In this document: positions 1,619 through 2,433 of the stretch, in pieces | Layout: every line of letters begins with the position of its first letter | How positions within the stretch are numbered: the first letter of the stretch is position 1 | Origin: Escherichia coli | Lineage (GTDB): Bacteria; Pseudomonadota; Gammaproteobacteria; Enterobacterales; Enterobacteriaceae | Reading direction: 5' to 3' (one strand) | Assembly: GCF_003334255.1 (NCBI RefSeq) | Contig: NZ_QOWU01000098.1 | DNA: 7,050 nt | Made by a program: the position numbers and the translations under genes | Notes under the pieces: model-generated | Database searches by the model: none | What the model was told of the DNA's origin: nothing | Seen by the model: the letters and a program-made list of their open reading frames with translations, nothing else

Positions 1619-2377
1619 ATGAATAACACCAAAAAATCACTAAAAGTGCTCTTTATTGGGGAATCCTGGCATATTCATATGATTCATTCAAAAGGATATG
1701 ACAGTTTTACCTCAAGTAAATATGAAGAAGGTGCGACCTGGTTACTCCAGTGTCTGAAAAATAGTCAGGTAGATGTCACCTATATGCCAGCACATACGGT
1801 ACAAATTGCCTTCCCTGAAGATGTGGCACAGTTAGAACAATATGATGCCATCGTTATTAGTGATATTGGTAGTAATACTTTCCTGCTACAAAATGATACT
1901 TTTTATCAGCTTCGCATAAAACCAAACGCTCTCGAACTGATTAAAGAATATGTGAATAACGGTGGTGGGTTATTGATGATTGGCGGCTATCTCTCATTCA
2001 TGGGAATTGAAGCAAAAGCCAATTATAAAAATACAGTTCTGGCTGATGTGCTCCCGGTTACGATGTTAGATGGTGACGATCGTGTCGAAAAACCAGAGGG
2101 TGTTATTGCACAGCCATCACAACCTGAACATCCAGTTATTAAAGGGTTCTCTGAATATCCTTTTTTCCTAGGTTATAACCGGGCGATCGCTAAAGAAAAT
2201 GCTGAGGTGGTATTAACAATAAACAACGCTCCATTACTGGTCTTTGGTAACTATCACAACGGGAAAATAGCCTGCTTTATGAGTGACTGTTCACCGCACT
2301 GGGGTACACAGCAGTTTATGTCCTGGCCGTTCTATACCGCGTTGTGGGTAAATATACTGACTCATATTGCAAGATAA
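1619..2377 (+). CDS. Conserved hypothetical cytoplasmic protein (252 aa); possibly class-I glutamine-amidotransferase-like / ThuA-like fold
   Basis: Intact ORF with RBS AAGGA (1608..1612), 13 bp after the kinase stop. Motifs KVLFIGESWHIH at the N-terminus and NGGGLLMIGGYLSF in the middle resemble ThuA/GATase1-like proteins as I recall them; the fold assignment is a guess. Overlapping ORFs on other frames are not credible. Confidence 0.7.
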   Translation: MNNTKKSLKVLFIGESWHIHMIHSKGYDSFTSSKYEEGATWLLQCLKNSQVDVTYMPAHTVQIAFPEDVAQLEQYDAIVISDIGSNTFLLQNDTFYQLRIKPNALELIKEYVNNGGGLLMIGGYLSFMGIEAKANYKNTVLADVLPVTMLDGDDRVEKPEGVIAQPSQPEHPVIKGFSEYPFFLGYNRAIAKENAEVVLTINNAPLLVFGNYHNGKIACFMSDCSPHWGTQQFMSWPFYTALWVNILTHIAR

Positions 2378-2433
2378 TAATAATAATGGGGTAACTCCAG
2401 TTACTCCATTTACTATAATAGAAGGATTGATGT

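Follow-up and report, generated by a model that had tools for sequence, protein, structure and literature searches.

An RNA hairpin between the GATase1_like and transporter genes of the Escherichia coli rikA-type operon is probably a selected mRNA structure

At boundaries inside operons, protective hairpins of the 3′ or 5′ kind are frequent, and they are conserved between Escherichia coli and Salmonella (Dar & Sorek 2018, PMC5927463). The described systems closest to the case considered here are the malE–malF type of 3′ protective hairpin and the papBA hairpin, a 5′ stabilizing structure made by RNase E cleavage. We analyzed a 7050-base stretch of E. coli DNA ('the window'; RefSeq assembly GCF_003334255.1, contig NZ_QOWU01000098.1). 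It corresponds to an accessory island of E. coli that carries an ortholog of the Salmonella rikA (STM3547)–STM3548–STM3549–STM3550 cluster, whose four genes encode a DeoR-type helix-turn-helix (HTH)/PfkB kinase, a GATase1_like protein, a YdcZ-type DMT transporter and a phosphotriesterase-related protein. An intercistronic hairpin (2385..2410, + strand) lies in the spacer between the second and third of these genes. From its pairing and conservation, the hairpin is quite probably a selected structure of the sense-strand RNA. We lean, by a lesser degree, toward a role in mRNA stability or processing, through which the hairpin would set the survival of the message of each operon half.

Like the malE–malF-type and other 3′ protective hairpins (PMC5927463), this element is a stable stem-loop between segments of a polycistronic unit, is conserved between E. 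coli and Salmonella, is flanked by A/U-rich RNA and lacks a proper U-tract. The malE–malF element, however, is a multi-copy repetitive extragenic palindromic (REP) sequence, whereas the present hairpin is single-copy. Many of the structures of Dar & Sorek lie inside the downstream open reading frame (ORF; PMC5927463), whereas this one is purely intergenic. As in papBA, the hairpin is intercistronic and is preceded by an unstructured A/U-rich stretch, here a UAA repeat, and its position 23 nucleotides (nt) before the next start codon means that it could become the protective 5′ end of the downstream message. Unlike papBA, the UAA repeat holds no UU and is a poor fit to the RN|WUU motif of RNase E (PMC5927463).

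The operon gaps measure 13 nt (kinase–GATase1_like), 56 nt (GATase1_like–transporter) and 2 nt (transporter–phosphotriesterase), so the 56-nt spacer is the sole gap able to hold a signal. A first-pass annotation of this DNA had placed a TAA repeat, a palindrome and a TATAAT hexamer in it, and sequence and script return all three at the same positions. The features of the spacer are:

2375..2386, + strand: (TAA)4, TAATAATAATAA, a stop codon with three in-frame repeats (sequence, script)
2385..2410, + strand: the intercistronic RNA hairpin, stem 2385..2395 with 2400..2410 and loop 2396..2399 (folds and covariation)
2391..2404, no strand assigned: the 6+2+6 palindrome GTAACTccAGTTAC / GTAACTCCAGTTAC, the upper part of the longer hairpin
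2414..2419, + strand: a TATAAT hexamer, incidental, in an A/U-rich stretch before the Shine-Dalgarno sequence
2420..2426, + strand: AGAAGGA, the Shine-Dalgarno sequence of the transporter gene, whose ATG is at 2434 (sequence)

In the hairpin, AAUGGGGUAAC (2385..2395) and GUUACUCCAUU (2400..2410) form 11 base pairs, one of them a G.U at 2390:2405, and enclose the loop UCCA. Its conserved core spans 8 bp (2388..2395 with 2400..2407), four of which are G-C. The palindrome was therefore under-called when described as an element of 6+2+6 bases: it is present, as the top of an 11-bp RNA hairpin whose minimum-free-energy fold leaves T2396 and A2399 unpaired in the loop. The window holds 17 perfect inverted repeats that have arms of 6 bases and loops of 0–6, compared with 13.1 +/- 4.3 in dinucleotide shuffles, so the 6-bp palindrome as first described is unremarkable. 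Alone, the hairpin folds at -12.5 kcal/mol, and a 43-nt frame around it (2378..2420) reaches -13.0 kcal/mol (z -3.45), a value equaled by 2 of 200 shuffles. A fold of 91 nt also paired UCAUAU (2362..2367, at the end of the GATase1_like gene) with the transporter start-codon region; this long-range helix, a conceivable route to translational coupling, was set aside, its partners being unconserved in Salmonella. Searches of Rfam, permissive up to E = 1, gave zero matches in the window and in the spacers of seven orthologous loci.

Orthologous loci were gathered by protein search, contig look-ups and one genome-collection scan. The order kinase–GATase1_like–transporter–phosphotriesterase (kin-gat-dmt-pte) is found, in the same layout, in 25 loci from Salmonella, Citrobacter, Klebsiella, Budvicia, Pectobacterium, Providencia and Proteus. 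In five Succinivibrionaceae loci the fused kinase is missing upstream and gat-dmt-pte stands by itself. Kin-gat lacking dmt-pte is seen in Bacillota. The Enterobacterales GATase–transporter spacer is 51–131 nt long, with one of 247 nt, and that of every Enterobacterales ortholog except Pectobacterium holds a hairpin of -10 to -19 kcal/mol. Among the Enterobacterales spacers tested, 15 of 18 fold better than at least 97% of 500 dinucleotide shuffles. An unconserved spacer had been named at the outset as the observation that would speak against a role for these motifs; the hairpin is conserved in relatives, so that objection fails for it.

The hairpins sort into three sequence groups. The group 1 stem, GG(G/A)GUAAC/GUUAC(U/C)CC, is common to Escherichia, Salmonella and Citrobacter, and the loops that it carries vary (UCCA, ACCA, GCGG, GAAA, AAAA). 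The pair at 2390:2405 is G.U, G-C (in sequence type ST131) or A-U (in Salmonella and Citrobacter). The stems of E. coli and Salmonella agree at 15 of 16 bases and their loops at one of four. Third codon positions in the two genera are just 44–55% identical, a range shared by all four genes, and the stem is therefore kept well above a near-neutral level. The group 2 stem, GGGU(C/U)CGAAGA, is present in Klebsiella, C. amalonaticus and Budvicia and in degenerate form in Pectobacterium, and 3 of its 11 pairs have changed in a compensatory manner in the Klebsiella group. Group 3, with the stem A(A)G(U/C)GC(A/G)G(A/G)G, comprises Providencia and Proteus. Four of its nine pairs are compensatory and 97% of cells are paired; none of 500 shuffles reaches the observed pairing or covariation.

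Two features of these alignments point to the strand on which selection would act. Across the groups, G.U cells outnumber A.C cells by 11 to 2, and the + strand hairpin exceeds its - strand counterpart in stability by a mean of 1.6 kcal/mol and never falls short of it by more than 1.1 kcal/mol. The G.U excess and the stability of the mRNA strand argue for selection on sense-strand RNA and not on a DNA site. Of the two roles that the first-pass annotation had offered for the palindrome, a protein-binding site is unlikely, since the stem sequence differs entirely in Klebsiella, Providencia and Proteus, only pairing is kept and neither the window nor the promoter region of the operon has a second copy. 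An RNA processing element fares better: the compensatory stem, the strand bias of G.U pairs and the free loops support a role at the RNA level, and processing itself would be the interpretive part of that proposal.

The Providencia and Proteus spacers (loci L015–L029 and L072; for example, L022 4239..4366) are 111–132 nt long. On the 3′ side of the hairpin they contain the invariant blocks CCGATTAC and ACTCATAG(T/C)C, and their Shine-Dalgarno region, AATCCAAAAGGAA, is conserved. The Proteus hairpin sits between A-runs and is thus terminator-like only on the opposite strand. These spacers gave neither an Rfam match nor a convincing promoter.

Within E. coli, the loop change T2396A is a common allele and leaves the hairpin equally or slightly more stable. 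Position 2405 is tri-allelic, with T, C or A producing G.U, G-C or G.A, respectively. With the T2405C allele (ST131 type), the G.U pair becomes G-C and the hairpin is stronger, at -15.5 kcal/mol. Two deletions affect the GATase1_like gene. In strain 1332KP a large deletion in this gene has its downstream end inside the 5′ arm of the hairpin, and strain 20Ec-P-124 has lost 20 nt at the 3′ end of the gene.

Several observations weigh against a selected hairpin that acts on mRNA stability. The rare T2405A allele (strain EC21) breaks the pair 2390:2405 and weakens the structure. In the window the fold of the whole 59-nt spacer is marginal (z -1.8, p about 0.056). The operon is decaying in this strain, with a frameshifted kinase gene and a stop in the transporter gene, so the hairpin may here be free of selection. 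The Pectobacterium spacer hairpin reaches just -3 kcal/mol, and of the five gat-dmt junctions in Succinivibrionaceae, three or four are short and hairpin-free. The gene pair therefore does not strictly need a hairpin, given that Pectobacterium and most Succinivibrionaceae junctions are without a good one. Homology among the three stem groups is not demonstrable, and the recurrence of the hairpin may reflect repeated gain instead of descent, although repeated gain would likewise argue for function. Finally, 3–4 U follow the stem in Escherichia, Salmonella and Citrobacter, and in these genera partial termination is inseparable from an effect on stability.

In the model that we favor, the four operon genes would be transcribed together, and most polymerases would pass the hairpin because a proper U-tract is absent. 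The stretch from the hairpin to the transporter start has no room for a promoter, so transcription of the downstream genes would have to pass through the hairpin. Endonucleolytic cleavage would then occur in the A/U-rich single strands that flank it. The upstream segment could be left with the hairpin as its 3′ terminus, where it would block 3′-to-5′ exonucleases (PNPase, RNase II), as at malE–malF, or the hairpin could cap the 5′ end of the downstream segment against RNase E, as in papBA. By either route, the two operon halves, with the cytoplasmic kinase and GATase1_like proteins encoded in one and the transporter and phosphotriesterase in the other, would reach different mRNA levels. Action through stability or processing, as opposed to partial termination, is the interpretive part of the model, and so is its direction, with the upstream or the downstream segment stabilized.

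The alternative that survives best, which we nonetheless consider unlikely, is a leaky intrinsic terminator or attenuator after the GATase1_like gene that lowers transcription of the transporter and phosphotriesterase genes; it could descend from a boundary at which two once-separate transcription units met. The palindrome had been called too short to be a terminator, a judgment that rested on 6 bp. The true stem has 8–11 bp with four or five G-C pairs, and it is the U-tract that fails. As in an intrinsic terminator, a G+C-containing stem-loop follows a stop codon and leads into a short U run in Escherichia, Salmonella and Citrobacter (tails: E. coli UUUACUAU, Salmonella UUUGCUAA, Citrobacter UUUUAUAA). 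In BioCyc the Salmonella cluster is divided into two predicted operons, with the position of the split unstated (PMC13432705), and this spacer is the only sizeable gap. It also joins two modules that are separable, as kin-gat in Bacillota and gat-dmt-pte in Succinivibrionaceae. Against termination, the terminator scan of the window does not list the hairpin, and the U-run of the E. coli tail (AUUUACUA / AUUUACUAUAAU) is interrupted after three U. There is no U-tract in Klebsiella (ACAGCCUG) or Proteus (AAUAAAA), yet both keep the hairpin. With 23 nt to the ATG and no credible downstream promoter, the downstream genes would depend on read-through. Unlike an intrinsic terminator, the hairpin apparently lies within the operon, and the one at the operon's true 3′ end (4443..4469) is far stronger, at -22.4 kcal/mol.

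Less probable still is that nothing in the spacer is functional, the hairpin, TAA run and TATAAT all being neutral features of an A/T-rich linker in a decaying island. The pseudogenized state of the operon in this strain fits such a reading, as do the E. coli polymorphism in TAA copy number and at three hairpin positions, the chance frequency of the palindrome as first described and the marginal whole-spacer fold. Neutrality suits TATAAT and the TAA run but does not fit the hairpin: conservation of the stem far exceeds the identity at synonymous sites, compensatory changes have arisen independently in three clades, and hairpins of unrelated sequence recur at this one junction.

It is also improbable, more so than neutrality, that the hairpin is a dedicated regulatory element, such as a site for an RNA-binding protein or small RNA or a condition-dependent attenuator, which gates the transporter and phosphotriesterase genes separately from the kinase and GATase1_like genes. 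If this were true, the switch would have a more elaborate form in Providencia and Proteus, whose longer spacers contain the invariant CCGATTAC and ACTCATAG.

A role for the palindrome as a DNA operator that binds a dimeric regulator, such as the kinase with its fused DeoR-type HTH, and acts on an internal TATAAT promoter is very improbable. GTAACT/AGTTAC is a perfect inverted repeat, the operon itself encodes a DeoR-type HTH, and TATAAT stands 10 nt downstream of the palindrome. Between genera, however, the half-sites differ while the HTH-kinase remains 62–82% identical, so that only pairing is kept, and the G.U pairs and strand asymmetry favor RNA. The motif matches once in the window (0.04 expected by chance), and there is no copy in the upstream region 274..391, which holds a different palindrome. 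The frequency of 6-bp palindromes is that of chance, the common E. coli allele T2396A breaks the innermost palindrome pair, and the supposed promoter has no -35 element and a start past the Shine-Dalgarno sequence. The upstream palindrome is perfect (GTGATtATCAC, 330..345), lies ~50 nt before the kinase start codon and is a better candidate than the spacer palindrome for an operator of the DeoR-type HTH.

The hexamer itself had been noted as a perfect TATAAT before the ribosome-binding site of the transporter gene. The hexamer is there, but it is unconserved and lacks a usable -35: Salmonella carries CTAAATAA in its place, the -35 position reads GTAACT (3 of 6 matching) and TG is absent at -15/-14. 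TATAAT occurs six times on the + strand of the window, against 2.4 expected, and the promoter scan of the window does not list the copy at 2414..2419. It ends 14 nt before the ATG, and a start ~7 nt after 2419 would coincide with the last base of the Shine-Dalgarno sequence (2420..2426). A transcript started from TATAAT would thus miss the Shine-Dalgarno sequence, because the start falls at its end. It does not resemble a sigma-70 promoter, and TATAAT is to be read as a chance hexamer in the A/U-rich region before the Shine-Dalgarno sequence. At the Shine-Dalgarno sequence itself, AAGGATTGA(T/A)GTATG is kept in Escherichia, Salmonella and Citrobacter. A different promoter call, CTGACT-16-AATAAT (2357..2384, 9 of 12 matching), took the TAA repeat as its -10 and was rejected; promoter-like sites number 9 in the window and 11.9 in shuffles.

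The TAA run begins with the stop codon of the ORF 1619..2377, and the four copies are, as first reported, in-frame stops in series. That such tandem stops are a selected fail-safe against read-through of the GATase1_like stop is hardly credible. Four in-frame stops are present, and a trinucleotide run of at least four copies arises in just 2.4% of dinucleotide shuffles. The run is, however, missing from Salmonella, most Citrobacter, Klebsiella, Proteus and Providencia, and only C. amalonaticus also reaches three copies, independently. Its counterpart is TAACAATAC in Salmonella, TAAAAAACAAT in Citrobacter and TAAAATATC in Klebsiella. The Salmonella TAACAATAC is two substitutions from (TAA)3, which fits a proto-microsatellite later expanded by slippage. 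E. coli lineages carry four copies (~52%) or three (~47%) at near-equal frequency in an evenly spaced sample of the 1941 matching records. A single UAA with U after it already provides the strongest stop context in E. coli. On this distribution, the run is a lineage-specific slippage microsatellite in an A/T-rich linker and no conserved signal. It is usable as a 3-or-4-copy lineage marker within E. coli and has no evident function. Elsewhere, AATATCAA is repeated about four times in the Budvicia spacer (L013 4263..4330), and a 20-nt tandem duplication in one strain of Pectobacterium cacticida (L008 4763..4810) is missing in another. The linker on the 5′ side of the hairpin seems slippage-prone in several genera.

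A dispersed repeat of the REP or bacterial interspersed mosaic element (BIME) type, which likewise takes the form of a small intergenic palindrome between co-directional genes, is rejected: a 35-nt hairpin query (distant mode, E-value limit 10) matched a median of one place per genome and solely in the 1944 island-carrying genomes, no Rfam match was obtained, and the hairpin sequence is not known to be related to the REP consensus.

The remaining features of the window are summarized below, with gene identities taken from the ORF list and from the RefSeq annotation of a nearly identical locus:

392..1605, + strand: DeoR-HTH/PfkB kinase gene, rikA (STM3547) ortholog, in RefSeq 'PfkB family carbohydrate kinase, frameshifted' (tblastn)
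1619..2377, + strand: GATase1_like (PF07090) gene, STM3548 ortholog, 252 amino acids (aa), intact (ORF list, protein search)
2434..3399, + strand: YdcZ-type DMT transporter gene, STM3549 ortholog, a pseudogene here (RefSeq 'internal stop')
3402..4436, + strand: phosphotriesterase-related protein gene, STM3550 ortholog, final gene of the operon (ORFs, RefSeq, tblastn)
4443..4767, - strand: 3′ fragment of ggt and the strong hairpin 4443..4469, on the 3′ side of the operon
4847..6467, - strand: ISL3-family transposase pseudogene bordering the island, split into ORFs 5088..6071 and 6129..6467

E. coli chromosomes match the window at 99.7–99.8% identity, and at least 80% of it is found in 1875 of 5426 complete genomes. 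The kinase gene is split here by a frameshift near 835..880 into ORFs 392..835 and 880..1605. The transporter gene has an internal stop at 3040..3042, where its ORF ends, and tblastn aligns transporter residues 1–321 across 2434..3396. All four operon genes are intact in ST131, where the kinase gene encodes 404 aa, and in other B2-type strains; the kinase and transporter genes are intact also in MS7163. The GATase1_like protein belongs to 100% identical E. coli clusters and shares 83% identity with that of Salmonella. The transporter is 84–89% identical even to those of Proteus, Providencia and Budvicia. This high conservation points to purifying selection, not recent exchange, because third-codon identity is alike in all four genes; the same equality speaks against a recent transfer with a recombination breakpoint at the spacer.

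In the full locus, zinc-ribbon and inovirus-Gp2-family genes lie past the ISL3 pseudogene. The Salmonella operon is chromosomal, between yhhX–RyhB–yhhY-type genes and an intact ggt (L005 1839..1904 and 6855..8597), and RyhB at this locus is an Rfam match of 86 bits. Since a ggt fragment follows the island operon and intact ggt adjoins the Salmonella operon, the island of E. coli seems to be a copy of a Salmonella-like chromosomal locus that took a piece of ggt along.

Of the rikA–STM3550 cluster, the kinase alone has been studied so far (PMC13432705). A literature search for transcript data on STM3547–3550 returned only this 2026 RikA paper, which is without such data. The hairpin is one more case of a well-known design principle and brings no new mechanism. 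The cluster, in turn, is a conserved and functionally unsolved four-gene pathway of Enterobacterales. With a selected hairpin between its two halves, one would expect unequal expression of the enzyme half and the transporter half, an expectation that can guide the placement of mutations.

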